DNA from: an uncultured Gammaproteobacteria bacterium
Lineage (GTDB): Bacteria; Patescibacteriota; Microgenomatia; Levybacterales; UBA12049
Length of the DNA: 64,000 bases
Assembly (NCBI GenBank): GCA_964497535.1
Contig: CAZCCG010000001.1
Span: 66,688-130,687, forward strand
Direction: 5' to 3'
Of the stretch, positions 29,697 through 63,916 are shown in pieces. Position 1 is the first letter of the stretch, and each line of letters begins with the position of its first letter. Position numbers and translations under genes: made by a program. The notes beneath the pieces are model-generated. The model ran no database searches. It was given only the letters and a program-made list of their open reading frames with translations, and was not told the DNA's origin.

Positions 29697-29697
29697 G

Positions 29698-37490: not shown

Positions 37491-37511
37491 CAAACTAAAG
37501 AAAAACTTACT

Positions 37512-37949: not shown

Positions 37950-38004
37950 AGATCTCTCCCCTTGTTATTGTTTTTATCACATCAACTTGTTACTATAATT
38001 ATAT

Positions 38005-42398: not shown

Positions 42399-42477
42399 AA
42401 ACTCAACCGTAATCTCCTCTCCTCTTGACTTCTTATGAAATATATTGTCATACTTACTGTTGAAGGAGGTGATTGGA

Positions 42478-42861
42478 ATGCAAGATCAAACACAACAAAT
42501 TCCACCGGAAGTGAAATCTTTTCTTGAAGGTATCTTACAGGATGCCAATATGGTGACGTTGGATGACCAAATGAAAGAAGAGATGGTCAAAGAACTCTAT
42601 GTACGGCTGGATAACTTTATCACAGCAGCGATTGTCGATCATATGCCTGCTGACAAAGTTGAAGAATTTATCAAAATGAACGAGGAAAAAAAGTCCAAAG
42701 AGGACGTTGAAAAATTTGTTAAAGAAGTCATGCCAAATGCCCAAGAGGTATTTACCAATGCTTTCATGGAATTTCGTGATCTGTATTTAGGAGGAGTTGC
42801 TGCAAAACGGAATGAACCGGAAGCTGCAAACACAACCGTTCCATCTTCTTCTAAGAACTAA
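42478..42861 (+). CDS. Small acidic helical protein, partner of the downstream giant protein (paralog of the ORF at 48473).
   Basis: RBS aaggagg before the ATG at 42478. IPPEVKSFLEGILQDANMVTLDD...FIKMNEEKKS...MPNAQEVF aligns with the 48473 protein. Confidence 0.55.
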   Translation: MQDQTQQIPPEVKSFLEGILQDANMVTLDDQMKEEMVKELYVRLDNFITAAIVDHMPADKVEEFIKMNEEKKSKEDVEKFVKEVMPNAQEVFTNAFMEFRDLYLGGVAAKRNEPEAANTTVPSSSKN

Positions 42862-42866
42862 CTACC

Positions 42867-45800
42867 ATGGCAGAAATCAACCAACCAGGTGGTCCTGAAG
42901 TACGATATAATCCTGAAAGAACAGATTCTCGTGAAGCAGTTGTTCATGCTGCACGGGTTGGATTTGATGAATTTAATAAACAAGCGAGAACACTTGAAGC
43001 AAAAAAAACTGATGAACTTACTCCAAAGGAACGCCAATTTCTTCGTGACCGCAATGTTTTCAAAAGTGGTATTGATGAAACGATAGACCACAAAGACGCC
43101 AATGGTAACCCAGCTGCGCGAGATAGCATTCCAACCGACTTTGAAAATAGAGAAAATCCGCAAGGCCCACAATTTCGACAATATGAAGGGATTCCTGTCG
43201 GAAGAGTAATTGGGTTCCTCCACGAGAAAATTGGGGCATTAGAAGCAGACCCCGCTAGCGACAAAATGTACATTGCAGAACTCAAACAATCCTATGATGT
43301 TTTGAGAAGAAATACTAAGGCATATTCTGAAAGGAGAAGTGTCTCAAATGGAAAGTTTTTCAGTCGCGTCGAAGAAGAGGCACGGAGAATTGCTCAAGAT
43401 CCTTTAGTAGCAACCCATGACCAAAATGGCAACTCTGATCTGGTAGCAAATTACTATTATGCGCTCAATGAGATTCGAACCAGACAGGAACTGATATTCC
43501 CCAAAAATAAAAACGTAGTACTCCCCCCTGAGGAACCTGATACAAAATTATTGCCGCCAGGACAACGACCGGCAGAATTACCTCCGGGGAATCATCCCCC
43601 AGAGCTTCCTCCTGGACAAAAACCAGGAGAACTAGGACCCGGTCAACATCCACCGGAACTTCCTCCGGGGGTACATCCTCCTGAATTACCCCCAGGCCAA
43701 AAACCTCCGGAACTACCACCCGGGCAGAAACCGCCGGAATTACCGCCGGGAGTTAAACCACCAGAATTACCACCTGGAGATCGTCCTCTAGAACTTCCGC
43801 CCGGTAGACCAACACCGGAAGATGTAGACCAGATCAGGCGTGATTTTGCTATTGTTAATCGCCACGCAGATGTAGAAAAGCGAGCACGAGAATACGCAGA
43901 GCAAAAAGTCCGTGAAGAATATAAAAAAGGCAGTTTCTTAAATCCCAAAGATATGTTCCGTAAAATAAAGCTTCGTGTCGGAGAAGAATATTACCGCCAA
44001 AAATATATCCAGGAAGCTCGCACGGCAATGCTTGCCAATAATAATTCATATATGGACATGGATGCAGCGACTCTCGGACTAACAGACGCAAAACATCGAA
44101 TAGATGAAGAACGTCAAGCAGGGACAGCAAAAGCAGAACAAGTAGCACTTCAAGCGCGGGAAAGAATCCAAGTAGGAGGAACTGAAGTCAAAGAAGCACA
44201 CGGCGCGCTTAAGGATGCGATTATGAAGGACATCATTCGTCCAGTTATTGAGGGCAAAATTACTGACCCAGCACAAGTACAAGATGTTATCAAGCAATTT
44301 GTAGAAGCAAATAATACTGATCCGGATGTCCAGGAAATATTTGGCAAAGACGCCACCCAGTATGGCAAACAGGCAGAATACTATGCGTCCAATTTGTTAG
44401 AAACAGGAGCATTGGTGAGAGAAGATGTAGCAGCTCATCGATATGCTATGGAGCAGATTGACGAAGTCGTGCATATCCAATTAGGTAATCCTTCATGGGC
44501 AGCGGAAACACAAGCTAATTTCAATACTGCTGACAAATTAATTGCAAGGCTTCAAAATGGACCATTGAGAGGATGGGCCGCAAATCCGGCAGCCATCGGG
44601 CTAGCAGCCTCTGCGGTAGGATTTTTTGGTACGAGATTACCCGGCAGAGTAGGACAAGCAGCTGGTGCAGTACCTGGTGTTGGAGTACTCATGGGAGCAG
44701 GATTTGCAGCACTTCGTCGCAACATGGATCTGAAACATGACATGGAAGCCCATCGTGTCGAACGTGCATATAACATGCAGGTTCCAAAAGATGCAAAACG
44801 GCGGGAAGCACTTGAGCAATTTGCCTATAAAACCGCTTCAGTGAATGAGTTACTCGAAGGAGGACAAGACAGAGAAGGAATGCTCGGCGGCGACTCACGG
44901 GGACTAAAAGAATTAGCTCAACTCAATCTATCTATTAATAATCCGAATACTCCAAACCCGGCAGAAACAGATCTACGAGCACTGATGAACCGGGAACATT
45001 TACTCCGTCGTATGTCAGAAGTCCAAGCGCGTCTGGATTTCTCCGCCCAGGAAAAAGTTGATTTGATAACATTTGAAACCCGCGAGCAGGTCGAACAAGG
45101 AAGACTGGAACTCATCAAAGGACTTGCCCAAGCTCGACTGGCATTGAAAAATGCCGGCATGGATGAAGATACCATGAAGGCAGACCTTGATCGGTACGGT
45201 AGTCAATGGACCAAATCATTTATACAGGACCGCGATCAAGAAAACAGAAAGTTTGCCAATTATCGAGTGAAAGAATCACTAAAAGCTGGCGCTTTTGCCG
45301 GCGCAATAGGATTGGGAGGAGTATTCGTCAGCCAGGAAGCTCTTGCCGGCGCAGGAAGAGTCATCGGCAAGCATGTGAATGATACGATACTTGAGCACGG
45401 CATCAAAGGCATCGGAGGAATCGCAGAAACTGTTAAATCCCATCTTCCAACACCAGGATCAGTACCTGCAGCTGTAGGAGCAGTGGCAGAAGCAGGAAGA
45501 AATACTCAACAGGCAATTGGATCTATTGACGTAACTCCAGGTGCGGTTGCAAATAAGGTTGGTGAGGTAGTAAATGGTATACGATCCACAGATATTCCCG
45601 GTGTTGTCTCAGGAGCAGCAGCTGAGGCAGGAAATAAAATTGGCAGTACGAATCCTGAACAAATACTCAGAAGCATGGGAGATTTCCTGACCGCAGAAGC
45701 ACCTGTTCCTTCCTCTTCTGAAATCCATGGATTAATCAGCGCAGACCTGCTCAAACAAGCATATGAAAATCCGCGTAATTTCCCAATTTTTGATGCAGCC

Positions 45801-48356: not shown

Positions 48357-48472
48357 TATAGTGTTTATCAGCTCCTCATAAGCTAACTATAAGCCAGCTA
48401 TTATTGACATACGTGGTACCACCTGTAATACTTGAATAGGCAAAGGTGGTGATTTTTGTGGATGAACAAACA

Positions 48473-48799
48473 ATGAAAATTCCGAAAGAAATTCGAGACT
48501 ATTTGGAAAATCTGCTGAAAGATGCGCAGATGACTCCGCTGGATGAGGAAATGCACGAAGAAATGATTATGCAGCTCTATCGTCGACTCGATACCTTTCT
48601 CAATGCAACCATTATGAATCACCTTCCTCCAAAGCATATGGACGCATTTATAAAGATCAATGAGGAAAAGAAGTCTCAGGCAGAAATTGAGCAATTCTTA
48701 AAAGAAAACATGCCCAATGCTCAAGACGTTTTTGCACAAGCGTTTGTTGATTTTAGAAAAACCTATCTGGGAGATTCAAAATCAAAAGATAGTAACTAA
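48473..48799 (+). CDS. Small acidic helical protein, partner of the downstream giant protein (paralog of the ORF at 42478).
   Basis: RBS aggtgg before the ATG at 48473. IPKEIRDYLENLLKDAQMTPLDE...FIKINEEKKS...MPNAQDVF. Confidence 0.55.
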   Translation: MKIPKEIRDYLENLLKDAQMTPLDEEMHEEMIMQLYRRLDTFLNATIMNHLPPKHMDAFIKINEEKKSQAEIEQFLKENMPNAQDVFAQAFVDFRKTYLGDSKSKDSN

Positions 48800-48807
48800 T
48801 ACAACCT

Positions 48808-51800
48808 ATGCCAGACATAACAGCACCTGATCGACTGCCCCCCGCACCGGTCCATCAAGCAGATCGGAATATTGTTCGTGGCCCAAACCGACCCTTACCT
48901 CCCGCACCAATCCGTCAGGAAGATAGAGAAAGTGACCACAGAGAAGACCACCAAACAGTAACCAATAATCATGATAACGGCCAGCCACAAGATGAAAAAA
49001 TTCGAGTTAACATTATCAATACTCAAGAAGAAGCAAGTAAAGCAGGGAAAGAACGTGCTGAAGAGCGCAAGAATGAGATCCTCCGACATCCTCCCGGATG
49101 GAGTATTGTTAATTGGGCACGACGCATTGGTATGCGATGGATTGAAGGTGGTTGGGTCAGTATTCAAAAAGACCGATATATGGAAGTTATGCGCCGAAAT
49201 GGCTCAACACTTCTCACTACGGATATGGCACGGGGAGCAGCAGCTATTACCCAAGCCGAGAGAGCACAACATCAACAAAAACAAGAAGCTGTTATTGAAC
49301 GGTTTCAAAGCCGTAATGAAACAGATCTTGCAAACAGAGGAGAACTCAAACGTACACTTGATCGACCAGAAAACCAAGAAGTACGCAATTTGATTGTCAA
49401 TGAAATCCTCAGGCCTATTACAAATGGTACTGTTACCAATCCCGATCAAGTACAGGCACAGCTCGCCCAATTTGTTCTCAACCATATTGACAATCCTCTC
49501 GTCCGAGAATTCTTTGGTGCCGAAGCAAACATGTTTGGCGATCGTGCACAGTTCTTTGCAACTGATTTGTTCGAAACAGGTCAACGAGTCAAGATAAAGA
49601 TGGAGCAGGAGAATAAAAGCCTAGGCGATTTAGATCATCTTATTGAAGTCACCGTCGGACTTGCCAAAGGAGGAGCAATGACGGATACCCGTGGAAATAT
49701 AGACCAGTGGGTTGCAGCGGCAAAACGGCGACAAGCAAATATACTTGCAAGCGGAGCACAGGGACTAGGATTCCATGGAATTATTTCCAATCCTGCTGTT
49801 GTCGGTATTGCAGGAAGCTTGGCTGCGCAAGGGTTGCTACGAGGGGCAGGAGCAGCAGGACGAGCATTGGATCTTCCGTCCCTAGGTGTTGGCTCTTTAA
49901 TGGCAGGAGTAGCAGCTGGTGTCAGAGCTCGAAGCGAATTCCGCGCTGACCGGGCAATGAGTCAAGTACAACGTGTTGCATATGGACAAACGCCGGAAGC
50001 AAATGCGAGAAAACATCAGGAGTTGGCCAGATTTGATTACCAAACAGTACAAGCGGAAGAGCTCCTGCGAGGCGGAGGAACAGACTCTATTAGCGGTGTC
50101 CCCCGTAGAAGTTTTGATGACCTGTTGACAGCAGACTTAACCCTTGAAGCGAATAGAACCCAGGTCTTCAGCCGTATCGCAGAAATCGACAGCCGGATTG
50201 AGTACGGCAATATGAACAATGTAGATCTGATTTCCTATTCCGGTAAAGATGTTATGGAACGCCAACGAATGCAGATGGATCAGGAAATTGCACGAGCCCG
50301 AATTACTCTCAGACGAACAGGCCTGTCTAACACAGAAATTGATAGCGAAATTGACCGACTCAAAACTGAGGCAAACAGAAGACTCATACAAAATAGAGAA
50401 GCCCAAGATCAGCAATTCGAACAAGCACGGATGCGCTATGCCCTCAGACAAGGTGGTCAAGCAGCATTGTTTGGAGCTGTCTTTGGACTTGCATCCCAAG
50501 AAGGAGTTGCTCTTGCTTCTCGAGCTGCATCTCATATAGCAGATAATGTCCCAATTGCCGGGGGATTGAAAAATATTGGCCTCTTTCGACAAACCGGAAG
50601 TACTATTGCAGAAATTCCCTGGAACAAAGTTATGGAGGCAACCGGACATGATAACCTCAGAACTGATATTTCGATAGCCTCTTTGGGACTCAACCTCAAT
50701 AAAGTCCAGGAACTCTATCAGCATCCGGGAAATATGGATTTCCAAATGCCTGATGGGTCACACTATACCCTGGCAGTTGGAGATAGTTACCAGGCAAGTC
50801 TTCTCGACGCAGCAGGAAATCGTGTTCCCACCGGGCCGCTTGAAATCACTCAGGAAGGACATGTTATTTCCTGGGGACCAGTTCCTGACCAACTCAAATC
50901 AACGCTCAAAGATACGTTGGGCTGGACCATCAATGAAAATGTACCCAACCCCGATTATGATTTGGCAAAGGGAGTAACCCGCTGGATGGAAGCTGTCCAG
51001 AATGGCAATGCGGAACACATCACCGGTATCCATGGCAACATGATCTACGACTTGCAACCGGATGGACAGATGTCGGTAACCCTCAATCCGACAACTGACA
51101 ATGTGATGATCCATGGATTTGGCACCATGACCGATGGCAAAGGAATGATTGATGTTGATCCGACATTCAATGGCAATGCAGAGGCATTTGCCAATCATGG
51201 TGATCTGATCCGCAACGAATTGGGGGCAGCCGGATTTCAGGTAGATGTCGAAACTATTCCGGGGCATGATGAGACTGTTGATATTGCAGATTATCTGCGA
51301 GAGAAGGGCGAACTCTCCCCAACCATGAGAGAACTCTGGCATGATAACCAAACTCCCATGCGGTTTGTAAATGGCCGTTGGATCGGCGCAGACGGTAAAG
51401 AATTACAACTCTACCATCACGTCAAAGATGTAGGTCCAGTGACACCACAACAAGCACTAAGCCACATCAAAGAGCAGATCCCTCCCCAGATGCTTCGTAA
51501 CCCGCATGTGCAACAATTAATGCAGGAATTACAAAAACCAGGGACACTGCAAAGTCTTACTCCTGAGAAAGTACAACAACTGGTTGGACAACTTCCTCCC
51601 GAAATGCAAAAAACTCCTCAAGTACAAGCCGCAGTTGAGGAATTCAATAAAGTATTCCAGACCAAACAACGGGTCGTTGAAGTAGACTTTGCTAAAATGG
51701 TCAGCCAATTCCAACGAGGAGTGTGGCGCAATTGGGATTATTCTGTTGATAATCAATATAACCGTGTGGTCAATGACATTGTTGCGCAGCCGGATGGCAC

Positions 51801-53505
51801 ACGACTCTATAGAAATTTTGAAGTGATGATCACCCCCAATAAAGCCCTGGATTCAGCCAGACAAGCAGTGGTATTTAGCCTGGACAAACATCCAGAACTA
51901 CTTACAGGCAAACTCGACTTTGACGTCAATTCCGAAGAGGCAAAGATGTTCTTCCAACTTGATGAAAATGGGAATCCCATTGCCAATAGTTTTGGTCCGC
52001 AAAATTATCAAAAAGCTGCATTTATAGAAATTGCGCATATGCAACCAAATGGTTTGAGAACTATTCTCGCAACGTCACAGGGACCGGGCATTGATCAGTG
52101 GCATCACAAAACTCCCGATCATCAGATATTCCATGTCACTCCCCCTTCTTCAACAGAACTCATCCCGCCGGAAGCTCCCCTTCCCGGAGATACACCGTGG
52201 CTTGTCACTCCCGGCCGCACTCCGAGACATCCGTTGGAAAGAACAACCCCAGGGTTACCTCCTATAGAACCCCCAGTTAGAGAACGGTACCCGGGACTAC
52301 CAACATACGAAGGCAACTTTCCCCCTGGTAGTCGCATGAAGAATATTTTAAGAAGAAAAAACCAAGGAAGGATAGAACCGGGAAGAATTCAAGTAAATGA
52401 TAGTGAAGGTCAACGAGCACTCCAGGAAGCTAAAGACGCATTTGGACAAGCAGATAGTATTTATTTTGTTCTAGGAGGCGCTATTGGTGATTCTGTTATT
52501 GCCACCGCATATTTACGAGGAATCGAAGAAGCTCTCCGACAACAAGGCAGGAATACTCCAATAACAATTATTGCGAATCAAGATTATGGAAATCTATTTG
52601 ATGGCCTTGCCAGAGGAAATGTTAGTATCATAAAAGCCCCCCGAGGAACGGGATTGTCCACTGCTGAAAGAAACATTGCAACCGCTGCATCATCATCTCC
52701 CTTAATTATTGATTTTGAACATTATAGAGACGAAAATCCAGCTATTACAAAAGACCTACTTACAGGGACAACAACGATAAGCAATTTACTTGGCCCTTCT
52801 ATTGAACTCTATAATAATAATACCGATAGGGAAAGAAGATATAGCCATGTTATCGAAGATCTATTTTCTTTAAACAAAGATTCCATTCCACCTCAGGAAG
52901 CACGGCCATCTATTCCGCCGCCTGCAAATAAGGATAGGCTCTACCAAGCTGTTGCTCAACGATGTGGAATCGATATGAATAACCAAAACCAAATTGGAAT
53001 TGTCGTTGAAGGATCACGAGCAGGCAAACGATATAGTTTGGACAACTGGACACAAGTTATTTCTGAAATATCTGCACAAAAGCCTGGATATCAGTTCAAT
53101 ATACTTTATAACGCAAATAATCCACAATCAGGCTATGGGAGAGTAGATATTGAACGGGCTATTGCGCGTGCCGGGCTTACGAATGTGCACATAATTGAAG
53201 CTAACCTAGAAGAATCGGTTTCTCTTATGGATAAACAAAAATTAGTATTGTCTAATGATACCGGCTTTGCCCACGTTGCAGCGTCGATTGAAAATGGACC
53301 AAAAGCAGTGACAATCTTTACTCCGAAGAATTTTCCACCAGTCTTCTGGGTATCGAGTGATAGACAAATCCCTGTTATGATATCCTCCACTCAGGAAGCT
53401 AGACTCCCGGATGTAGACATCAATGTAGATGATGAGAGACAAAAACTCATTAATAAAATCCCTCCACGACAAGTAGCACAAGCAGCTATTACTCAGCTCC
53501 CTTAA
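48808..53505 (+). CDS. Giant protein (1565 aa): N-terminal region paralogous to the 42867 protein, C-terminal GT9 (heptosyltransferase-like) glycosyltransferase-fold domain.
   Basis: GT9-like blocks near 52.4-53.4 kb: YFVLGGAIGDSVIATAYLRGI, GKRYSLDNWTQVI, LVLSNDTGFAHVAASIENGPKAVTIFTP. N-terminal blocks (NPDQVQ, LFETG, Gly-rich segments) align with the 42867 protein. Confidence 0.6.
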   Translation: MPDITAPDRLPPAPVHQADRNIVRGPNRPLPPAPIRQEDRESDHREDHQTVTNNHDNGQPQDEKIRVNIINTQEEASKAGKERAEERKNEILRHPPGWSIVNWARRIGMRWIEGGWVSIQKDRYMEVMRRNGSTLLTTDMARGAAAITQAERAQHQQKQEAVIERFQSRNETDLANRGELKRTLDRPENQEVRNLIVNEILRPITNGTVTNPDQVQAQLAQFVLNHIDNPLVREFFGAEANMFGDRAQFFATDLFETGQRVKIKMEQENKSLGDLDHLIEVTVGLAKGGAMTDTRGNIDQWVAAAKRRQANILASGAQGLGFHGIISNPAVVGIAGSLAAQGLLRGAGAAGRALDLPSLGVGSLMAGVAAGVRARSEFRADRAMSQVQRVAYGQTPEANARKHQELARFDYQTVQAEELLRGGGTDSISGVPRRSFDDLLTADLTLEANRTQVFSRIAEIDSRIEYGNMNNVDLISYSGKDVMERQRMQMDQEIARARITLRRTGLSNTEIDSEIDRLKTEANRRLIQNREAQDQQFEQARMRYALRQGGQAALFGAVFGLASQEGVALASRAASHIADNVPIAGGLKNIGLFRQTGSTIAEIPWNKVMEATGHDNLRTDISIASLGLNLNKVQELYQHPGNMDFQMPDGSHYTLAVGDSYQASLLDAAGNRVPTGPLEITQEGHVISWGPVPDQLKSTLKDTLGWTINENVPNPDYDLAKGVTRWMEAVQNGNAEHITGIHGNMIYDLQPDGQMSVTLNPTTDNVMIHGFGTMTDGKGMIDVDPTFNGNAEAFANHGDLIRNELGAAGFQVDVETIPGHDETVDIADYLREKGELSPTMRELWHDNQTPMRFVNGRWIGADGKELQLYHHVKDVGPVTPQQALSHIKEQIPPQMLRNPHVQQLMQELQKPGTLQSLTPEKVQQLVGQLPPEMQKTPQVQAAVEEFNKVFQTKQRVVEVDFAKMVSQFQRGVWRNWDYSVDNQYNRVVNDIVAQPDGTRLYRNFEVMITPNKALDSARQAVVFSLDKHPELLTGKLDFDVNSEEAKMFFQLDENGNPIANSFGPQNYQKAAFIEIAHMQPNGLRTILATSQGPGIDQWHHKTPDHQIFHVTPPSSTELIPPEAPLPGDTPWLVTPGRTPRHPLERTTPGLPPIEPPVRERYPGLPTYEGNFPPGSRMKNILRRKNQGRIEPGRIQVNDSEGQRALQEAKDAFGQADSIYFVLGGAIGDSVIATAYLRGIEEALRQQGRNTPITIIANQDYGNLFDGLARGNVSIIKAPRGTGLSTAERNIATAASSSPLIIDFEHYRDENPAITKDLLTGTTTISNLLGPSIELYNNNTDRERRYSHVIEDLFSLNKDSIPPQEARPSIPPPANKDRLYQAVAQRCGIDMNNQNQIGIVVEGSRAGKRYSLDNWTQVISEISAQKPGYQFNILYNANNPQSGYGRVDIERAIARAGLTNVHIIEANLEESVSLMDKQKLVLSNDTGFAHVAASIENGPKAVTIFTPKNFPPVFWVSSDRQIPVMISSTQEARLPDVDINVDDERQKLINKIPPRQVAQAAITQLP

Positions 53506-54400: not shown

Positions 54401-55735
54401 ATGGAGCAACATCCTATCCCTCAAGACGTTACCGGATTTCAATTCCGCCTCATTGGAGACATGACAATCAAGCAATTTGCCTATGTCGCAGCCGGTGTTA
54501 TCTTGGCGTATCTGTGCTTTAATCTTCCTCTTTCACCGCTCATAAAAATACCCTTGGCTCTTTTGATTGGAGGCTTTGGTGCGGCGTTGGCATTTGTTCC
54601 CATTGAAGGACGACCATTGGATGTTATGGTAACTCATTTTGTCAAAGCGTTATTCACCCCCACTCAGTATACCTATCAAAAAGTAGGAGGCAAACTCTCA
54701 ATGACCTCGGTACATATGGTTACGCCCCAAAAGACAATGGTTGCAGTCCACACTGCTCCCGAATGGAAACAACAAAGATCTGATGATTCCCGAAAAAAGT
54801 TGCAGATGTATTTACAACAACTTCCCCATGCAACCCAAAATAAGCTTGATCAAAAAGAGCAAGTATTCTTTGAGTCGATGGCTCATGGATTTACTCAGCT
54901 CCCTTCTGTCCCCCAGCCAGCAATGCCGCAGCAACCGTCTGAGGGAAAACAGCAAGGATCTGGCACGTATTTTGTATCGGTCACAGGAGATCAACCGCAA
55001 GAGCAACCTCAACCACAGGCGCAACCGCCGGTTCCCGCGCCTGTTCCAACTCCCCCTCAACAGGCAGATGACACAAAAAATGAACAGGCACTTATTGCAC
55101 AAGAACAGGCAATTCAACAGGCATTAGCCGAAGCCAAAAAACAGGAGGAATTACAAGTAGAAGCACACCAAGAGACTGCTCAAACCCATGAGAAAGTGAA
55201 TGAACTTGAGGGACAACTCAATGAAGTTATGGTACAAAAACAAAAATTGGAAGAGCAACTATTGAGACTGCAAAAAAAACTTGATACTACCCATCCCCAG
55301 GTCTTTACGCCAAGCACTGCAACGGTGCAGCCCCAAGAACAACCTGCTCAAACGCAAAATGTACGCAGAATTCCCCGTGGTATGGAGACAAAAGTAGGAA
55401 CTCCTATGACTCCTGATGTGCCAAATATTATTCTGGGGATCATTAAGGATCCCCGAGGCAATGTGCTTCCTGGTATTTTGGTGGAAGTGAAAGATGCCGA
55501 GGGAAATCCGGTTCGGGCATTTAAAACCAACCAGCTGGGACAATTCGCATCTGCTACCCCGCTTCTCAATGGTACCTATACCATTGAATTTGAAGACTCT
55601 ACAGAAAAGAATACATTTGCTACAATTCAATTAGAGGCAATCGGAGCAATCATGGAACCGATTGAAGTAATATCCAATGACAAACGGGAAGATTTGAGAA
55701 AATCACTGTTTGGAAAACCAGGAGAAAAAGTTTAA
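54401..55735 (+). CDS. T4SS-associated membrane protein: VirB3/PrgI-like N-terminus, Gln/Pro-rich coiled-coil, C-terminal carboxypeptidase-regulatory-like beta-sandwich.
   Basis: N-terminal hairpin TM pair (AYVAAGVILAYLCF, LALLIGGFGAALAFV) as in VirB3/PrgI. C-terminal IILGIIKDPRGNVLPGILVEVKD...GTYTIEFE resembles the CarbopepD_reg fold. Confidence 0.45.
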   Translation: MEQHPIPQDVTGFQFRLIGDMTIKQFAYVAAGVILAYLCFNLPLSPLIKIPLALLIGGFGAALAFVPIEGRPLDVMVTHFVKALFTPTQYTYQKVGGKLSMTSVHMVTPQKTMVAVHTAPEWKQQRSDDSRKKLQMYLQQLPHATQNKLDQKEQVFFESMAHGFTQLPSVPQPAMPQQPSEGKQQGSGTYFVSVTGDQPQEQPQPQAQPPVPAPVPTPPQQADDTKNEQALIAQEQAIQQALAEAKKQEELQVEAHQETAQTHEKVNELEGQLNEVMVQKQKLEEQLLRLQKKLDTTHPQVFTPSTATVQPQEQPAQTQNVRRIPRGMETKVGTPMTPDVPNIILGIIKDPRGNVLPGILVEVKDAEGNPVRAFKTNQLGQFASATPLLNGTYTIEFEDSTEKNTFATIQLEAIGAIMEPIEVISNDKREDLRKSLFGKPGEKV

Positions 55736-55764
55736 AGATTAAAGTGTAAAACTTTTCATTACAT

Positions 55765-56433
55765 ATGGCCAATACTGCCCAGAAAGTCAAATCATCAACT
55801 CAAAAGTTTACTGAAATCATCGGCATTGATGAGGAAATTGTATTGATGGAAGGAGGCAATGCCTGCCTGATTATTGAAATTACCGCATCAAATTTTGCCC
55901 TTCTTTCCCAAGCAGAACAGCAGGCAAAAATCTTTTCCTACGCGTCACTTCTCAATTCCCTGTCATTCCCTATCCAAATCGTCGTTAAGAACAAACAGGT
56001 CGATATCACTTCATATCTCAAGCTTTTGGATTCCCAAGCGCAGAGCACAAAAAATGAAATGCTTTCCTTGCATATCCAACTGTATCGTGATTTTGTACAG
56101 GATTTGGTGAAAGTAAATACCGTGTTGGACAAAAAGTTTTATGTTGTTATCCCCTATTCCTATTTGGAAAAAGGGGTTACGGGAGCAGCCACAACCTCAA
56201 CCAAAAAAGGGGTTGTCCAAAAAACATTTGTTGACGATGCCAGAAAAAACCTCAAACTCAAAGCCGATGCAATTCAGGCGCAACTTGCCAGATTGGGACT
56301 TCCGGCAACAACCCTTGGGAAAGAAGAATTAATCAAACTCTTCTATGGCATTTTCAACCAGGATTTGACAGAAACTTCCCAAATCTCAGATGATATTAAA
56401 GCACCGGTTATTAAAGCAGCACAAAAAACATAA
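55765..56433 (+). CDS. VirB4 N-terminal-domain-like protein (separate ORF, stop 1 nt before the VirB4 start).
   Basis: EIIGIDEEIVLMEGGNACLIIEITASNFALLSQAEQQAKIFSYASLLNSLSFPIQIVVKN resembles the N-terminal block of Gram-positive conjugative VirB4 homologs (recalled from memory). Confidence 0.4.
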   Translation: MANTAQKVKSSTQKFTEIIGIDEEIVLMEGGNACLIIEITASNFALLSQAEQQAKIFSYASLLNSLSFPIQIVVKNKQVDITSYLKLLDSQAQSTKNEMLSLHIQLYRDFVQDLVKVNTVLDKKFYVVIPYSYLEKGVTGAATTSTKKGVVQKTFVDDARKNLKLKADAIQAQLARLGLPATTLGKEELIKLFYGIFNQDLTETSQISDDIKAPVIKAAQKT

Positions 56434-56434
56434 T

Positions 56435-58657
56435 ATGAAATTATCATTTGGTAAAAAGGCACAACAACCAACACCAGCACCGGTTACACCTGCAGGAGGA
56501 AAACCACAGCAACCTAAGGCTGCTGCTCCGGTAAAAAAGGTCACTCCCCCCACGGGATATGTCTCTCTGGAACATTTAGAAAAAGGGATGATTTCCCTGG
56601 CAGATCTATTGGCCCCTTCTTCTGTTGAGGTTGATTTTCGCTATATCCGAGTCGGAGATAAATATTACCGGACATTTTTTGTCGTTGGGTATCCCCGCTA
56701 TGTATCGGCCAACTGGTTACAACCACTGATTGATTTTGACCATACCCTGGATATTTCCATGTTTATTTACCCTACTTCTTCAGCTGATGTACTCTCGGAT
56801 TTACGACGAAAAATTGCGGAAATGGAAGCAACTATTTCATCTGAATCTGAGCAGGGAAAAGTTGTAGATCCCAAAGTTACGGCAGCATTGCAAGATGCTC
56901 TCTCTCTTCAGGAAGAACTGGCAAAAGGAGTAGAACGATTTTTTCAATTCAGCCTGTATGTTACTGTCTCTGCAGAGGATATTACCAAACTTGATGAAGC
57001 TTCAAAGGTACTCCAAACAACACTCGCCTCAATCCTTCTGTTGGCAAAGACAGCAACACTTCAGATGGAGGAAGGCTTTAAGACAACGCTTCCTATTGGC
57101 CAGGACCGGCTCTTTTTGACACGTAACATGGATACCACGTCCCTTGCTTCAACCTTTCCCTTTACGTCTGCCACATTAACCCAAGACAAAGGAGTCATGT
57201 ATGGAATTAACGAACAAAATGGCTCGCTCATCATTTTTGACCGGTTTTCTCTTGAAAATGCCAATGAAGTAGTGTTGGGTAAATCCGGTGCGGGAAAATC
57301 ATTTCTCATCAAGCTTGAGATTATGCGGCAGTTTATGTTTGGCACCGATGTTATTGTCGTTGATCCTGAAGGGGAATATGGCAAACTGGCTGCCACCCTA
57401 GGAGGGGAAGAAGTCGCTTTCACCCCCTCCTCTCCTGTCAAGATTAACCCATTTGATCTTTCAGGACTCTATGAAGAAGGTGAAAATGAATTGGGGCTCA
57501 AAATTCTGTCATTACATGCATTACTTCGTATCGTTTTGGGCAACCTGGATGCCTCTCAAGATGCTATTTTGGATCGCGCCCTGGTTGAGACATACAAGCA
57601 ACGCGGTATTACCGCAGACCCAACAACCCAGAAAAGTGAACCTCCCCTTATGGAAGATTTATATAAAACCCTTTTGGGAACCGAGAATCCAACGGCAAAA
57701 GAACTCGCGCTGCGGCTGGAGAAATTTATTAAAGGCAGCTTGAGCGGTATTTTCAACCAACAATCCAACTTTAATCTGAGTAACCCTCTCACTATATTCT
57801 CGATCAAAGCTCTGGAAGATGAGCTGCGTCCGATTGCCATGCATATTATTCTGGATTTTGTCTGGACCAAAGTACGCAAGACCCTGAAAAAACGGCTTCT
57901 GATCCTGGATGAGGCGTGGTATATGATGAAATATGAAGACTCTGCCAGCTTTGTCTATGGCATTGCAAAACGGGCACGCAAATATTACCTGGGACTCACC
58001 ACTGCCACGCAAGATGTAGAAGATTTCCTTTCAACCGATTACGGCAAAGCGGTTCTGTCAAATTCCTCAATTCAAATGCTTCTGAAGCAAGGGACAACTG
58101 AGGTTGATATGATTTCCAAAACATTTTATCTTTCAGAGGGAGAGAAAGAACTCCTCTTAACAGCAGATGTGGGAGAAGGACTCTTTTTTGCAGGAAGAAA
58201 CCATGTACCCATCAAAGTTGTTGCAGCACCCTTTGAAAATACTATTATTACGTCAAATCCGGAAGAAGTCATGAAGAACCTGGCGCAACAACAAGCAGTC
58301 CCGCAAGGGCTGACAAATATGATGGCGGCACCGCAAGAACCGGCAGCACCCGCAGACCCCAGTTTGCCTCCAGTCTTCCATCCAAATGCAGTTGCCAATG
58401 CCGTTTCTAATCGTCCGACACCGGCTGCTCCCGCAAAACCTGATCCGCTTGATCCATTTGAAAAAGTCTCACCGGTCAAAATAGAGACTCCTGCTGCGCC
58501 TGTTGCTCCGACGACAACACAATCTCCTATTCCCCCAACTCAACCTTCTATACCACCAGCTGCTGCTCCAGTCATAACCCAAACGCCAACAGCTCCTCCA
58601 TCCCAAATACCTACACCTGGGGTACAATCTCCTGCGCCAACCCCTCCCCGACCATAG
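56435..58657 (+). CDS. virB4: VirB4/TrbE/CagE-family type IV secretion ATPase.
   Basis: Walker A VVLGKSGAGKSF, Walker B LLILDEAWYM, and N-terminal VirB4 block FRYIRVGDKYYRTFFVVGYPRYV. Low-complexity Pro/Ala-rich N- and C-terminal tails. Confidence 0.8.
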   Translation: MKLSFGKKAQQPTPAPVTPAGGKPQQPKAAAPVKKVTPPTGYVSLEHLEKGMISLADLLAPSSVEVDFRYIRVGDKYYRTFFVVGYPRYVSANWLQPLIDFDHTLDISMFIYPTSSADVLSDLRRKIAEMEATISSESEQGKVVDPKVTAALQDALSLQEELAKGVERFFQFSLYVTVSAEDITKLDEASKVLQTTLASILLLAKTATLQMEEGFKTTLPIGQDRLFLTRNMDTTSLASTFPFTSATLTQDKGVMYGINEQNGSLIIFDRFSLENANEVVLGKSGAGKSFLIKLEIMRQFMFGTDVIVVDPEGEYGKLAATLGGEEVAFTPSSPVKINPFDLSGLYEEGENELGLKILSLHALLRIVLGNLDASQDAILDRALVETYKQRGITADPTTQKSEPPLMEDLYKTLLGTENPTAKELALRLEKFIKGSLSGIFNQQSNFNLSNPLTIFSIKALEDELRPIAMHIILDFVWTKVRKTLKKRLLILDEAWYMMKYEDSASFVYGIAKRARKYYLGLTTATQDVEDFLSTDYGKAVLSNSSIQMLLKQGTTEVDMISKTFYLSEGEKELLLTADVGEGLFFAGRNHVPIKVVAAPFENTIITSNPEEVMKNLAQQQAVPQGLTNMMAAPQEPAAPADPSLPPVFHPNAVANAVSNRPTPAAPAKPDPLDPFEKVSPVKIETPAAPVAPTTTQSPIPPTQPSIPPAAAPVITQTPTAPPSQIPTPGVQSPAPTPPRP

Positions 58658-58767
58658 AGTATATAGTATTTAATTTGGGGACATTGAAAATCATATATTG
58701 GAAATTTGAAATCCGCCTGCCTGTGCTATGATTAAGGTATACTGCGACTCTGTCGTTTGTTCTGCCT

Positions 58768-61700
58768 ATGCCGGTCCAAGAAAAACTGCCTACTGTCAAT
58801 CAAGCATTCCATTACTTTCCCCAAGACCACCTCTCGGCGGAGTTAAAAGATATTCTTTCTAAAGTTGCTAACTTTACCGCACCCCAATGGGAAACCTATA
58901 AATCTCAGAACCCAAATATATCCCCCTCTGTTTCAAGTAAAATTACCCAAACCCTTGCCGCATATGAAACTGTTTTTACCACTGCGGAGCAACCGCCCGA
59001 CAGATCTCAGGAACCGGAAAAGAAACAAGGAGCACAGACTTCCTCATCAATGCATAACCAGCCTCACGAACATCAAGCAAAATACATTGACGAGGACCAC
59101 CGTTATTTGGAATTAGCCGGAGAGAATCAGTCCGGATTTGAAAAAACTCTGGAAAAAAAGTATGGGAAAGACTGGAAAAAGAATAACCAAGCCAAACTTG
59201 AGCTTGATCGCTATATCAATGGCCAGACATTCCCTGTCGATAAAAATACCAAATCATTGAAAAGTGAAACGCTCAAACAGTTCTATAAGGAACACAAGCA
59301 AAAACGGCATGAGCTGCAAAAAAAAGTGAAAGCTACCGAACAACAATTGGAAAAATTAAAAGTTTCCAGGAAAAACCCCCTTGTCAAATTCGTCCAGTTC
59401 AAATCCAAAACAAACCAATTAAAAAAAGAAAGAGATGCACTTAAAAACCACATCGATACCCTCAAGCACTATCATGAAAATGAACGACAACGAATACATG
59501 AGCATTCTTCAGACGATGTAAATGTACAGCAAACGCATGCCAGTATTGAAAAAAACAGACGGAAAATTCTTCGTAAATCACAAAAACAACAACAGGCTAT
59601 AGAAAAGCAGAAGGAAGAAATCCGAACTCAAATAGAAGAAACCATCAAACAAAAAAATCAAGAAAGCAATGGGACTGATACCAAACAGTTTGAAGCAGAT
59701 GAAAGACAGAAGGCGGAACACCAAATTCAATCGTTGGAACAAAAGCAAGAACAGACCAGAGAGCAAGCAGCGAAACGAATACAAGCACGAGAAGAAAAAC
59801 AGTGGGAAAAGTTCGTTAAAAAACATCCAGAAAAGACACGTACCTATGCACTCCCACCAGAAAAAGCAACTGATCAGGATATTGCACTTTCCCGATCAAT
59901 ATTTCAAGCCAAACAACGGGTAGATGCATCAGAAGAACAAAAAAAACGACGAGGTACACAACCACAAATAACGACGACGACCCAGGTGAATACAACCCAT
60001 ACAATTACCCGGGCAGATCATCCTCAAACACTTTTGGCTACACCAATCCATCCTCATCAAAAAGCTGGGGAGGAGACAGAAGAACAACGAGGACAACGAA
60101 CAGGACGAAGAATAACCTGGAAAGATCGGTTCCTTGGTAAGGAATCTCATGCCCCTTCTGGCCTGTATGGTGGGCGGTACGGCGCGGCTGGAAAACGTAT
60201 CTCTATATCAAAAGCACCACGGTTAAATATGGGACGATTACGTGGACGCGTTTCCTCTCTTGGTGCCTCGTTTAGCTCACGATTTATGCCTCAAAATTCA
60301 GAACCACAACAAGAACAAAGAGAGTTACCATTTCAACTCCCTAATTTAATCAATACAGGCAACGATATATATAACACTGCGCAGAATGTCAAATCAGCAG
60401 TGCAAATGGCACAAAAAGCTGCCCAAGCTGCCAGAGCTGTTCAAATTGCAATTGCTGCCGCAAACCCTATTACATGGATTGTTATAGGCATTATTTTAGG
60501 CCTGTGTCTGTTAGTAATTATTATCATTATTATTTTTGGCGGAGGTACGATGCCGCAAGACACCCTGCAACAAAACCAACAAACACTAAGCGGACCTCCA
60601 ACGGGTACAAATAATCCTACTATTCCCGGCCTAATCTACTCGAAAACCGGGCCTATTTCAGTTGATAATGGTTCACAAATAACCTATACAGTCTCTGTAG
60701 CCTATACCGGCACCGATGATACGGTTACAGTCATCGATACCCTTCCTCCGAAAACAAAGTTTATATCTGCAAGCGGAAATCCTGATTTTATACGGCGCGA
60801 CGGAAGTGATCCAACCAGTGAAATTACCGGTGTGTCCTGGAATCTTAGCAAACAGAATAATTCTCAAACACTCTCAACAACGGCCGAAGAATCAAGCTCT
60901 CAGTTTCCGCAGGATATATATAGAAGCTATGGTTTCCCCACTCCCACTACTCCGGAAACCATGTCTACACAGGTCTTACAAAATTATAAAAATTATCTCC
61001 AACCCAACGTACAAAAAGCAGGAGCGGCAACCGGTGTTGATCCGGCAATCATCACAATGTGGGCGTGGCTTGAAACCGGTATAAATTCCTATGCGAGCAA
61101 TTGCAATGATCTGATAAAAAATAATCCCAACTATTACTGTGATCACGGATTGTGGCAAGTAGGCTATGGAATTCAAGTATATGATCATCTCAAAAACCTG
61201 ACAGAAGCGTTTAACGCAATGCATGCAGGAGAAACCGTACAAAGTGTAGGACAAAAGGTTATTGACGGCTCAGCTACCCGTGGCATAGGAGGAGCCATTA
61301 CTCAACCTTCTGCTGTCTTTCCCGATATCTCAATCAATGAATTGGTACAAAAAGCACAGCAGGGAGATAAGGATGCTCGAATGTATGCGGCAATTCTTAT
61401 GAAAGATGATGGAATTGGTGCATACCTCATCGGTAAAACGTTCAAGGGTATTATCGGACCTAACCTTGCCAAGACAATGCAGGGATGGAGCAGTAGTTAT
61501 TATGATCCGCAAAAGATAGTAAATTATATTGCCGGAGTCTATCAAGCGGGTATTTCCGCCTCCGCTTCCTCAGAACCCGCACGATCATATTCTTTTACGC
61601 TGGTCTTGGAACCAACAGAAAACGATATCTATGTTACCAACACGCTGCGCGCAACGGCAAACGGACAATCTTTAGTTACTCCCCCCTCAGGAGGAGTCAA

Positions 61701-62127
61701 AAGCGGAAATGCATGTACCGAACCCTATGAAGGAACCGGTTATTGTTCTGTTGAGTATCTCAAGCAGTTTTTTGGAGATAATGCCATCAAAGCATCTTTG
61801 ATCTGTCAAGCCGAAAGCGGAAGCAATCCTTTTGCCAAAAATGAGACATGCAGTACCAATGATTATAGTGTGGGTTTATTCCAAATTAACTTAATTGCCC
61901 ATTGCCCTGGTGCATTCTCAGGACAGTTCTGTTCACGAACAGTTATTAATGAAACGAAGAAAAATGAGTGTGAACGAAAATATAAAGATAATCCTGAGGA
62001 AAATATTAAGTATGCAGCAGGACTTTCCAAAAATGGTGCTGATTGGACTCAGTGGGGTACGTGGCTTCATGGAGCCGGCGGAAAACCTGCGGTAAAAACC
62101 ATTCTCACTCAATGTGGTATACAATAA
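58768..62127 (+). CDS. Giant membrane protein (1119 aa): N-terminal coiled-coil, one TM helix, C-terminal lytic-transglycosylase (Slt/VirB1-like) domain.
   Basis: TM ITWIVIGIILGLCLLVIIIIIIFGG. Slt motifs ICQAESGSNP and YSVGLFQINL near 61.8-61.9 kb. Confidence 0.55.
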   Translation: MPVQEKLPTVNQAFHYFPQDHLSAELKDILSKVANFTAPQWETYKSQNPNISPSVSSKITQTLAAYETVFTTAEQPPDRSQEPEKKQGAQTSSSMHNQPHEHQAKYIDEDHRYLELAGENQSGFEKTLEKKYGKDWKKNNQAKLELDRYINGQTFPVDKNTKSLKSETLKQFYKEHKQKRHELQKKVKATEQQLEKLKVSRKNPLVKFVQFKSKTNQLKKERDALKNHIDTLKHYHENERQRIHEHSSDDVNVQQTHASIEKNRRKILRKSQKQQQAIEKQKEEIRTQIEETIKQKNQESNGTDTKQFEADERQKAEHQIQSLEQKQEQTREQAAKRIQAREEKQWEKFVKKHPEKTRTYALPPEKATDQDIALSRSIFQAKQRVDASEEQKKRRGTQPQITTTTQVNTTHTITRADHPQTLLATPIHPHQKAGEETEEQRGQRTGRRITWKDRFLGKESHAPSGLYGGRYGAAGKRISISKAPRLNMGRLRGRVSSLGASFSSRFMPQNSEPQQEQRELPFQLPNLINTGNDIYNTAQNVKSAVQMAQKAAQAARAVQIAIAAANPITWIVIGIILGLCLLVIIIIIIFGGGTMPQDTLQQNQQTLSGPPTGTNNPTIPGLIYSKTGPISVDNGSQITYTVSVAYTGTDDTVTVIDTLPPKTKFISASGNPDFIRRDGSDPTSEITGVSWNLSKQNNSQTLSTTAEESSSQFPQDIYRSYGFPTPTTPETMSTQVLQNYKNYLQPNVQKAGAATGVDPAIITMWAWLETGINSYASNCNDLIKNNPNYYCDHGLWQVGYGIQVYDHLKNLTEAFNAMHAGETVQSVGQKVIDGSATRGIGGAITQPSAVFPDISINELVQKAQQGDKDARMYAAILMKDDGIGAYLIGKTFKGIIGPNLAKTMQGWSSSYYDPQKIVNYIAGVYQAGISASASSEPARSYSFTLVLEPTENDIYVTNTLRATANGQSLVTPPSGGVKSGNACTEPYEGTGYCSVEYLKQFFGDNAIKASLICQAESGSNPFAKNETCSTNDYSVGLFQINLIAHCPGAFSGQFCSRTVINETKKNECERKYKDNPEENIKYAAGLSKNGADWTQWGTWLHGAGGKPAVKTILTQCGIQ

Positions 62128-62131
62128 TATT

Positions 62132-62608
62132 ATGCAACTAAGAAAATTTTTATTTGTTACTCTGGCCGGATTGGCAATAATAATTGCAATCGCAATCTTT
62201 ATTAAATCGACCATTCCTCCAAAAATAAATGATCAGTCTCCTGAAAAAATCATTGTAGCAACACCGGCTCCTACCATACCTCAAACGCAAGTAATCGAAA
62301 TATCCGGCATACCGGTAAATAATTTTTATAAAAATGCTGCCGAAGTGAACTTAAATACCGATGCTCTTATAACAGAAACCAGTTCATATCAAATTGCCTA
62401 TCTGGCAAAATTTGGAGAATTTCTTATAACTGTGCTTGGTTCTCCTTTTCCACAGGCGCGGGCGACAGCCGAACAGGCATTTATTTCAAAGCTTGGTATT
62501 ACTAAAGAACAGGCATGCCAACTCACCGTATTTGTAAGTACTCCTTCCTATGCAAATCCCGACTATTCCGGACAGAAATATAACTTGTCCTTCTGTACAA
62601 GTCAATAA
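62132..62608 (+). CDS. Hypothetical N-terminally anchored protein.
   Basis: ORF with TM FLFVTLAGLAIIIAIAIFI; start taken as the Met right after the upstream stop. Confidence 0.35.
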   Translation: MQLRKFLFVTLAGLAIIIAIAIFIKSTIPPKINDQSPEKIIVATPAPTIPQTQVIEISGIPVNNFYKNAAEVNLNTDALITETSSYQIAYLAKFGEFLITVLGSPFPQARATAEQAFISKLGITKEQACQLTVFVSTPSYANPDYSGQKYNLSFCTSQ

Positions 62609-62609
62609 T

Positions 62610-63314
62610 ATGTCAATATACAAAAGTTATCTCTTTACCCTGCTACTCTTTCTGATATCTCTCAGTTACTTACCTTTTGTATATGCACAGGATGCTACGG
62701 TAAAAACAAAAGTAGGAAACCCCTCGGAAGATGTAAACTCAACTGAATGTAACTCACCATTGCCATCAGGAGATATCCAACAATCTATCAAAGATCAGTT
62801 TGGTATCACCATGAATGGCTTTGACCAAACGCATTTACAATGGGCTTGGGAAAAATTCTGCGGAAGTGCCAATACGAAGTTCAACCAACTCGTAAAAGGG
62901 AGTACCATTGAGGCCATTGCCGGACTCTCCCAACAAATTGGATGTTTTAAGGGGACAAGCGTCCAACTGGGACAATATCAACCAAAAGCACTTTTTCAAT
63001 TTATTTTAACCCATGAATTGGGACATGTGATTCGAAATTGCCACCCAAGAAATATAATTTTATATTCCAAACATATTGAAGCATATAACTCTGAGGGTGC
63101 AGTAAGTTATTATGGAGGCCATGCTGCTGCCTGTACTGGTTCTGATAACTTATCTGAAGATTATGCAGATATGATTGCTTATTATGTTAATCCGGAAGCT
63201 GGTATTGCAACAGTAAAATGTGCTCCTAATGCTACTCCACCGAATCCTTACTTTGTTGCAAAAGATAAACCGGCTCATCATAATGTAGTAAAGGGAGTAC
63301 TCGACAATCAATGA
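62610..63314 (+). CDS. Secreted HExxH zincin-like metalloprotease candidate.
   Basis: Signal peptide MSIYKSYLFTLLLFLISLSYLPFVYA and ILTHELGHVIRNCHP motif. Confidence 0.45.
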   Translation: MSIYKSYLFTLLLFLISLSYLPFVYAQDATVKTKVGNPSEDVNSTECNSPLPSGDIQQSIKDQFGITMNGFDQTHLQWAWEKFCGSANTKFNQLVKGSTIEAIAGLSQQIGCFKGTSVQLGQYQPKALFQFILTHELGHVIRNCHPRNIILYSKHIEAYNSEGAVSYYGGHAAACTGSDNLSEDYADMIAYYVNPEAGIATVKCAPNATPPNPYFVAKDKPAHHNVVKGVLDNQ

Positions 63315-63916
63315 TAAAACGAATATTTTTTATTAGTATCTGCTTATTTATAATTGTAAGTATAGTTATTGTTATAGTAATTCAACAGAATCAATCGAAT
63401 CATCAACAAACAAACATTCCATCTGCTAATAACACTGGCATTGATAGTGGTATCTCCAATATCATCAGCCCGCTCCAAAAATTTCCGATTGGTGCCAAAA
63501 ATAACCACTTGGATTCTGTTCCGGGTTTTAAAGATAAACAGACTCTTCCTGATGGAAGTGTTCAGTATGACTATGAATCCCCTCTTTCAATCCGTCCAAA
63601 TATAATTATCACGAAAGATGACTCCATCATTTACGAAAGAGAACTTACTCCGGAACAACCTTCAGAGAAAGGTTATGCAATAATTTCAGATTATCTCAAT
63701 AGATTCGGGCAACCGGATGTAATTGTTCAAGGTTCACATTTTTATGATTGGATGGCAAAAACATATATATATGCTCGAAGAGGATTCGCTTTTATAGGAA
63801 ACCCAAATACAGATGAGGTTTATGAATTTCAATTTTTTAAACCTATGTCAAGCGAAGATTATATAAAAAACTATGGAGAAGACTTAAATCCGAGTTCAGG
63901 ACCAAAACCAGAATGA
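63311..63916 (+). CDS. Hypothetical N-terminally anchored protein.
   Basis: 201-aa ORF with TM IFFISICLFIIVSIVIVIVI; overlaps the upstream stop by 4 nt (coupled). Confidence 0.35.
   Translation: MIKRIFFISICLFIIVSIVIVIVIQQNQSNHQQTNIPSANNTGIDSGISNIISPLQKFPIGAKNNHLDSVPGFKDKQTLPDGSVQYDYESPLSIRPNIIITKDDSIIYERELTPEQPSEKGYAIISDYLNRFGQPDVIVQGSHFYDWMAKTYIYARRGFAFIGNPNTDEVYEFQFFKPMSSEDYIKNYGEDLNPSSGPKPE

Follow-up and report, generated by a model that had tools for sequence, protein, structure and literature searches.

The ATPase and cell-wall half of a Patescibacteria-type type IV secretion locus, with a VirB3/beta-sandwich fusion, a split VirB4 and a membrane-anchored lysozyme-like protein

The Patescibacteria type IV secretion system (T4SS) is, to our knowledge, the only such system known to be indispensable to the cell that carries it. 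Southlakia epibionticum cannot grow epibiotically without its T4SS, which has pilins and in which neither a relaxase nor a coupling protein could be recognised (Wang 2023, PMC10633639). The VirB4 proteins of Patescibacteria form a monophyletic clade related to the MPF_FATA class, with TrsD as the most frequent partner (Quinonero-Coronel 2025, PMC12102498); according to the same survey, the systems derive from the MPF_FATA conjugation machinery of monoderms, contain PrgI/VirB3 and VirB6, are chromosomal and rarely have relaxases, and their VirB2 genes come in arrays of 2-11, especially in Microgenomatia and Saccharimonadia. Here we describe a locus of this kind in a 64-kb window, that is, the whole stretch of DNA that was analysed, taken out of a 393,298-bp contig (CAZCCG010000001.1); all negative domain results apply to this window. 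We consider it highly probable that the genes at 54401-63916 are the right-hand operon of a chromosomal Patescibacteria-type T4SS, a conduit to a host cell with a non-conjugative role; within them, 54401-62127 is the ATPase and cell-wall half of a relaxase-less, pilus-associated T4SS. The system itself was already described in 2023-2025, and what is new is the detail at the level of its components.

The initial annotation had placed four open reading frames (ORFs) of a T4SS core on the plus strand, at 54401, 55765, 56435 and 58768, and all four are present. The operon that they open consists of the following features:

54401..55735, plus strand: VirB3/PrgI-like membrane protein with Pro/Gln linker, coiled-coil helix and transthyretin/CnaB-like beta-sandwich, 444 aa (Pfam, AlphaFold2, Foldseek)
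aa 1-95 of the same: PrgI part, a transmembrane hairpin and a third helix
55070-55291, plus strand (aa 224-297): its coiled-coil helix of 74 residues (AlphaFold2)
55421-55732, plus strand (aa 341-444): its beta-sandwich (CarboxypepD_reg, AlphaFold2, Foldseek)
55765..56433, plus strand: TrsD-like protein, 222 aa, encoded separately and homologous to the VirB4 N-terminal part (NF045975, TrsD/TraD, PF26593)
56435..58657, plus strand: VirB4 ATPase, 740 aa, core at aa 46-610 (NF045971, P-loop_TraG, Walker motifs)
56435-56569 and 58265-58654, plus strand: N-terminal and C-terminal Pro/Ala-rich tails of VirB4 (composition)
58768..62127, plus strand: bitopic cell-wall module of five parts, 1119 aa
aa 1-570 of the same: K/E/Q-rich N-terminal region, predicted to be cytoplasmic
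60478-60534, plus strand (aa 571-589): its transmembrane segment
60625-60897, plus strand: its DUF11-like beta domain
60913-61677, plus strand (aa 716-970): its conserved middle domain, about 250 aa
61678-62124, plus strand (aa 971-1119): its c-type-lysozyme-like domain, with E1016 and D1032
62114..62608, plus strand: small protein with N-terminal membrane anchor, overlapping the stop of the 58768 gene
62550..63314, plus strand: secreted or anchored HExxH protein, putative metallopeptidase (motif THELGH)
63311..63916, plus strand: protein with N-terminal membrane anchor, the last overlapping-operon gene visible in the window

From 54401 to 63916, neighbouring genes either overlap or are separated by at most 110 bp and thus form one operon-like unit. 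Gene order was counted in the 80 best related loci with a 10-kb flank, and in all 80 the PrgI fusion, TrsD and VirB4 are adjacent and in that order. For Microgenomatia, the survey had found few VirB6 genes and, in most cases, no linkage of VirB3 with VirB4 (PMC12102498); in contrast, the Levybacteria-type loci studied here have VirB3 linked in 80/80 and VirB6, within the flank, in 39/80.

The protein at 56435, annotated as VirB4 with Pro/Ala-rich tails, proved to be just that. It scores 401 bits against the CD1110-family model NF045971 (cut-off 325; model positions 176-735) and 94.9 bits against Pfam P-loop_TraG, its Walker A (GKSGAGKS, aa 282) and Walker B (LLILDE, aa 488) motifs are both intact, its start at 56435 agrees with the gene caller, and Pro and Ala make up 33% and 43% of the two tails against 11% of the core. 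On the full-length VirB4 model NF045975 (NCBIfam), it covers positions 293-893, the N-terminal part being missing; the preceding protein, 55765, matches positions 98-233 of the same model (E 2e-10), which bears out its reading as a VirB4-N-domain-like protein. Since the two matches are consecutive and do not overlap, TrsD and VirB4 look like one VirB4 split in two. The 55765 protein also has a weak match to the TrsD/TraD model NF041427 (21.7 bits, cut-off 200; E 1e-4) and a precomputed Pfam assignment to PF26593 (TraC-like). As a weak test for a coupling protein, a second VirB4-like ATPase was sought in the 80 related loci, and none was seen.

The protein at 54401 had been read as a VirB3/PrgI-like hairpin joined to a coiled coil and a beta-sandwich, and profile, model and structure search agree on this. 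The Pfam PrgI match at aa 5-92 reaches 35.2 bits (cut-off 27) and, like those of VirB4 and of the TrbL domain in the VirB6-like protein described below, lies over its cut-off, so that a profile search, the kind of check proposed for these assignments, supports them. Another proposed check, a structural model, was made with AlphaFold2 from 23 homologues: it has membrane helices at aa 23-40 and 46-64, a VirB3-type third helix at aa 73-85, disordered Pro/Gln linkers, the long helix of the coiled coil, and a beta-sandwich at aa 345-424 with a predicted local distance difference test score (pLDDT) of 80-88. CarboxypepD_reg matches aa 344-400 slightly under its cut-off (29.5 bits against 32.3; E 1e-6), and Foldseek matched the sandwich to CnaB, SdrD-B, SpaA and transthyretin-like carboxypeptidase domains (E 1e-5 to 1e-3). 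The fusion had been called unusual; it is real, but it is typical of its lineage. Its matches number at least 1867 database proteins; the top 120 are nearly all full-length and have both domains, and relatives are encoded in 381 species-representative genomes; being lineage-wide, such fusions appear unusual only relative to textbook T4SSs. Across relatives, the beta-sandwich has the highest identity (71%), followed by the PrgI domain (64%) and the linker (21%), compared with 64-79% for VirB4 and 31-60% for the pilins; conserved like VirB4 and unlike the pilins, the sandwich fits a partner internal to the machine. By analogy to the canonical topology of VirB3, the extension with its coiled coil and sandwich is most likely cytoplasmic. 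VirB3 proteins are otherwise small (10-15 kDa), with short, cytoplasmic termini (2025 review, PMC12857230), and in the 2025 survey (PMC12102498) we saw the PrgI/beta-sandwich fusion mentioned nowhere; the lineage-typical fusions of this locus seem to have gone undiscussed so far.

The 1119-aa protein had been described as a coiled-coil protein with an Slt/VirB1-type lytic transglycosylase at its end, a description that overlooked the transmembrane segment, the DUF11-like domain and the 250-aa middle domain. A signal peptide is absent, and only one segment is very hydrophobic (aa 571-589); K, E, R and Q make up 47.5% of aa 100-400, and Cys is absent from the first 570 residues, all 10 lying past the transmembrane segment and 8 of them in the last domain. 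From the single transmembrane segment, the distribution of Cys and the richness in K, E, R and Q, we infer that the N-terminal region is cytoplasmic and the C-terminal half extracellular. As to the transglycosylase label, SLT_3 (32.5 bits, cut-off 27) and SLT (23.5 bits, cut-off 21.3) both pass their cut-offs at aa 1003-1098; the profile of the terminal domain, however, is closest to c-type lysozymes (3cb7, E 3.6e-6; human lysozyme, E 8e-5), and these, not Slt/VirB1, appear to be its nearest solved relatives. The alignment takes in the catalytic Glu and the Asp of the "DY-G-FQIN" motif, and both columns are invariant in 13 homologues. With E1016 and D1032 both invariant, we prefer a muramidase-like label to that of an Slt-type lytic transglycosylase: the domain is better described as a c-type-lysozyme-like muramidase, a putative functional analogue of VirB1, and is probably a hydrolase. 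Foldseek with the model of the C-terminal half returned canine lysozyme only (E 0.5). The AlphaFold2 model of the middle domain is of low confidence (pLDDT 35-60); a profile search of PDB sequences gave no match for this domain, hhalign of its profile against that of the lysozyme domain gave a probability of 0.3%, and there is a weak EmtA-like match (E 0.05).

A word-index search with the extracellular half of the protein gave 33 homologues, each covering at most 55% of it, and in its relatives the domain after the middle domain is of two kinds, this lysozyme domain or an HExxH domain. In 66 of 69 loci, the gene directly 3' of VirB4 encodes a bitopic protein, the cytoplasmic part ranging from about 40 to 570 aa. 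In the window, this HExxH domain forms a separate gene (62550), the product of which matches P0137 (BLASTP E 7e-21) and has homologues 3' of VirB4 in 6 loci; it had no family match and none among PDB sequences. Homologues of 62114 follow the lysozyme gene in 5 related loci, with no family match for this protein in Pfam and NCBIfam scans, and homologues of 63311 lie 3' of VirB4 in 12.

The other half of the locus lies further to the left, and its elements are:

27872-27956: tRNA-Ser(GGA) gene, adjoining VirB6
28101..29696, plus strand: VirB6/TrbL-like polytopic channel protein, the left end of the locus (TrbL, transmembrane segments)
29698-33303, minus strand: acidic 1201-aa protein between VirB6 and the regulator, without family match
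33808..35166, plus strand: regulator with C-terminal OmpR/PhoB-type winged helix, 452 aa (Trans_reg_C, 71.8 bits)
35207..38322, plus strand: VirB2-like pilin array of four genes (Pfam T4SS_pilin)
35207-36685, 37158-37490, 37512-37949 and 38005-38322, plus strand: the individual pilin genes, the first with a large N-terminal domain

The VirB6-like protein and the four pilin genes had been recognised in the initial annotation, and rightly so: Pfam TrbL reaches 31.5 bits in the 28101 protein (cut-off 25.9), and T4SS_pilin scores 27.2, 23.8, 34.4 and 34.1 bits in the pilins, three over the cut-off and one slightly under. The locus thus runs from VirB6 to at least 63916, in the order VirB6, 1201-aa minus-strand protein, regulator, four pilins, a 16-kb slot and PrgI fusion, and then TrsD, VirB4, the anchored lysozyme protein and three small anchored proteins. 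The canonical locus of the relatives is compact, about 14 kb, with VirB6, often a large minus-strand gene, the winged-helix regulator, four pilins and PrgI fusion-TrsD-VirB4. Pilins are directly upstream of the PrgI fusion in 56-64 of the 80 loci, sometimes with an M50-like membrane protein in between, and the winged-helix regulator stands between VirB6 and the pilins in 43 of the 80, in either orientation; it is likely the regulator of the locus, and its N-terminal region is unassigned.

Two lines of evidence speak for a non-conjugative role. Upstream of VirB6, tRNA-Ser(GGA), tRNA-Ser(CGA) and tRNA-Arg(GCG) are found both in the window and in 13 of the 15 related loci checked, which come from divergent species; the same tRNA cluster next to VirB6 across species indicates a locus at a fixed chromosomal position rather than a mobile element and argues strongly against an integrated conjugative element. 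The window was also scanned for domains, with profile searches (Pfam, NCBIfam) of non-overlapping ORFs of at least 120 aa against curated cut-offs, and among these ORFs there is no relaxase domain, no coupling protein domain (VirD4/TcpA, T4CP), no integrase domain and no VirB9/VirB10 domain. The earlier observation that relaxase and coupling protein are absent from the window therefore stands, and the reading of the locus as a Gram-positive-style T4SS with a non-conjugative role is supported by the tRNA flank, the gene order and the published systems (PMC10633639, PMC12102498).

The source appears to be a Levybacteria-related (Microgenomatia) bacterium, placed through the names of homologues: those of the PrgI fusion bear the names Levybacteria, Levyibacteriota, Microgenomates or Patescibacteria, the closest species-representative genome having only 50% identity. 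The gene content of the window, with phosphoglycerate kinase, pentose-phosphate enzymes, two class A penicillin-binding proteins, DUF5663, tmRNA and seven tRNAs, is the profile of a reduced Patescibacteria chromosome. The window proteins that were looked up are also present in per-run Logan assemblies of SRR9179560-63. As a side observation, many third-party records of metagenome-assembled genomes with a Levybacteria-type locus are titled 'uncultured Gammaproteobacteria bacterium', apparently a mislabel in public records.

Compared with known systems, the locus is a VirB4-based T4SS, having an intact VirB4 ATPase and VirB3-like and VirB6-like partners. It is closest to the Patescibacteria T4SSs (S. 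epibionticum ML1 SEML1_0006-0019 and those of the 2025 survey): like them it seems to be chromosomal and relaxase-less, with PrgI/VirB3, a TrsD-like protein beside VirB4, VirB6, a divergent VirB2-like pilin array, and lysozyme and peptidase genes downstream of virB4. It differs from them in that VirB3 carries a 350-aa extension of coiled coil and beta-sandwich and in that a bitopic protein of 1119 aa ends in the lysozyme. Profiles and gene content, namely a CD1110-type VirB4 and PrgI, would assign the locus to the MPF_FATA class, and with the monoderm T4SSs of that class (pCF10 Prg/Pcf, pIP501 Tra, pGO1 Trs, CTn2 CD1110) it shares a CD1110-family VirB4, a PrgI-type VirB3, a TrsD-like protein as in pGO1, the lack of an outer-membrane core and a membrane-anchored multi-domain peptidoglycan hydrolase after VirB4, comparable to PrgK and TraG. 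Unlike those systems, it has no nearby relaxase, T4CP or adhesin, has VirB2-type pilins and is chromosomally fixed, and its hydrolase domain is c-type-lysozyme-like instead of SLT plus CHAP. The VirB/Trw systems (A. tumefaciens VirB, R388) resemble it in VirB2-like pilins, VirB3-VirB4 contact and VirB6; here, in contrast, there is no VirB5, VirB7-11 or VirD4, VirB4 is split over two genes and the envelope is monoderm.

Put together, these components suggest a machine in which the VirB3-like hairpin would anchor VirB4 to the membrane and TrsD would provide, in trans, the N-terminal part that VirB4 lacks. VirB4 and TrsD would power the assembly of the VirB6 channel and the VirB2-type pilus, and the bitopic lysozyme protein and the HExxH protein would open the cell wall, either the cell's own or that of the host. 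The whole may serve as a conduit to the host cell, for protein export or for uptake of host macromolecules, and would not transfer plasmid DNA; a 2025 review likewise speculates that signalling or uptake runs through a conduit made of T4SS and pilus (PMC12857230). Several points weigh against this interpretation. Its function and transport direction are extrapolated, by analogy, from one Saccharibacteria species, and export and import appear indistinguishable from sequence. No VirB8-like component was identified in the window, and the middle domain of the 1119-aa protein is without assignable fold. The cytoplasmic site of the VirB3 extension is argued from analogy alone, and CnaB/transthyretin-like sandwiches are mostly extracellular domains. 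Finally, a T4CP or relaxase may lie beyond the 64-kb window of the 393-kb contig, and according to the literature T4CP homologues are far from virB4 in many Patescibacteria.

At the system level, the locus adds nothing, but it defines a clean and well-populated variant, present in 381 species, and gives three handles on it: a VirB3 whose conserved additional domain may take the place of the coupling protein, a VirB4 divided between two genes, and a variable slot between pilins and VirB3 in which candidate cargo and a foreign high-GC gene have landed. The variant supplies concrete targets for the prediction of complex structures and, should a member of Microgenomatia be cultivated, for experiments. 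The VirB3 extension may dock a conserved partner, either VirB4/TrsD or a substrate, and such docking could make up for the missing coupling protein. The boldest version, in which the extension is a substrate-docking platform in a system without coupling protein and the giants of the slot are the first identifiable cargo of a Patescibacteria T4SS, we regard as improbable.

Among the alternatives, the one that fares best is a more specific version of our preferred explanation: an effector injector, with the giants encoded in the slot injected into the host as cargo via the pilus. The contents of the slot relevant to this are:

39564..53505, plus strand: variable insertion, with giants of 944, 1829 and 1565 aa and a DUF5663 protein
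42867-48356: the 1829-aa giant
48808-53505: the 1565-aa giant

The median distance between the last pilin and the PrgI fusion is 224 bp, with 13 of 64 loci above 1.5 kb; in the window the distance is 16 kb, which the giants, the DUF5663 gene and a high-GC island occupy. The claim that the core is compact does not hold for this genome, where the insertion of giant proteins splits the locus. The giants, which had been called effector-like, lie inside the T4SS locus, between pilins and PrgI fusion; homologues fill the same slot in two related loci (L014 and L041). The 1829-aa and 1565-aa giants each have a paralogous copy of a module of about 530 aa (E 5e-41, 24% identity), and their terminal enzyme domains differ, one being a PP2C phosphatase similar to PstP of M. 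tuberculosis and the other a glycosyltransferase of family 9 (GT9). This is the layout of polymorphic effectors, and the giants lack a signal peptide. On the other hand, giants occupy the slot in only 3 of 64 loci, carry no known secretion signal or adaptor and are linked to the system solely, and thus circumstantially, by gene neighbourhood, giant proteins being common in these genomes generally. We retain them as candidate cargo and judge an injector of these effectors possible, though somewhat doubtful. For the 1565-aa giant, there was no match among PDB sequences.

Slightly less probable, and in our view unlikely, is a machine for taking up DNA or RNA, comparable to archaeal Ced or to the ComB of H. 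pylori, through which host nucleic acids would feed a cell unable to make nucleotides. The locus shares with these a VirB4-family ATPase without relaxase or coupling protein, the latter lacking as in ComB, and a possible import role; a Patescibacteria parasite has been found to acquire host RNA, with pilus-like tubular structures at the interface (2026 preprint, 10.64898/2026.06.21.733656), and the locus harbours a foreign high-GC gene. The similarity, however, is remote and at the level of VirB4: the match of VirB4 to CedB (E 1e-16, 60 bits) is far under the cut-off of 700 and reflects general VirB4 homology, no CedA/CedA1-like partners were identified here, and the operon showed neither a nuclease nor a DNA-binding component. 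In S. epibionticum, deletion of comEC abolishes competence and leaves the cells viable, the T4SS remaining essential (PMC12857230), a result that opposes DNA uptake via ComEC, not other import. As for the remaining explanation, the mating-pair-formation module of a conjugative element integrated at tRNA-Ser, with relaxase and coupling protein outside the window, a conjugative transposon (CD1110) did indeed serve to define the family of its VirB4, the neighbour of VirB6 is a tRNA-Ser gene, the window is only part of the contig and Patescibacteria genomes do contain 109 relaxases, but these lie near virB4 in only 15 cases (PMC12102498), the GC content of the locus is not distinct from its flanks, no integrase, relaxase or T4CP domain is found in the window, and the conserved tRNA flank and fixed gene order are the pattern of vertical inheritance, which makes this reading very improbable.

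Several further observations concern the surroundings of the operon. The tRNA-Ser gene next to VirB6 is one of seven tRNA genes (four Ser, two Arg, one Met) that cluster with a tmRNA gene at 21327-27956, just upstream of VirB6; the cluster is partly syntenic across Levybacteria. The 1201-aa protein has a lone hydrophobic segment at its C-terminal end (aa 1171-1189) and looks tail-anchored; recognisable homologues occupy the same place in 8 loci, and many more loci show a gap about as large. Genes of one family are interspersed among the regulator and pilin genes:

33412-33777, 36712-37086 and 38364-38735: PF05635 four-helix-bundle genes ('23S rRNA intervening sequence protein')

The three paralogues are divergent (32-36% identity). 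PF05635-like genes are found in intergenic slots of the T4SS in 14 of the 80 loci; 17 of 18 such genes are on the plus strand, and three stand between PrgI and TrsD. The PF05635 genes are Avd-like, a hint of a diversity-generating retroelement targeting the pilins; this idea was rejected, as there are no repeats of the TR/VR type in 28000-39600 and no reverse transcriptase domain in the window.

The slot itself has a second recurrent type of insertion, a minus-strand pair of genes for proteins of about 600-750 aa and about 100-140 aa, seen in eight related loci (L010, L039, L045, L049, L054, L056, L058 and L064). In the window, the last part of the slot, directly upstream of the PrgI operon, is an island of about 550 bp within 53600-54200, with 63-73% GC against 43% in the genome. 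It contains one gene:

53700-54140, plus strand: high-GC ORF, 146 aa, GC content of 89% in third codon positions

A promoter-like site lies near this ORF at 53562-53590, and a GC-rich hairpin with a T-run at 54160-54200; gene callers annotated the ORF on the wrong strand. Both junctions of the island are identical in two independent per-run assemblies. The ORF had no Pfam, phage or word-index match and one plasmid match of 42 bp (E 3e-4, 7% of the query). Among 1.8 billion representatives, only 8 relatives were found, mostly long multi-repeat proteins; the three long ones that were scanned have Cna_B or Ig-like repeats, the best being an LPXTG-anchored surface protein. The island gives the impression of having been acquired recently from a Gram-positive organism of high GC content and is possibly a clue to the host.

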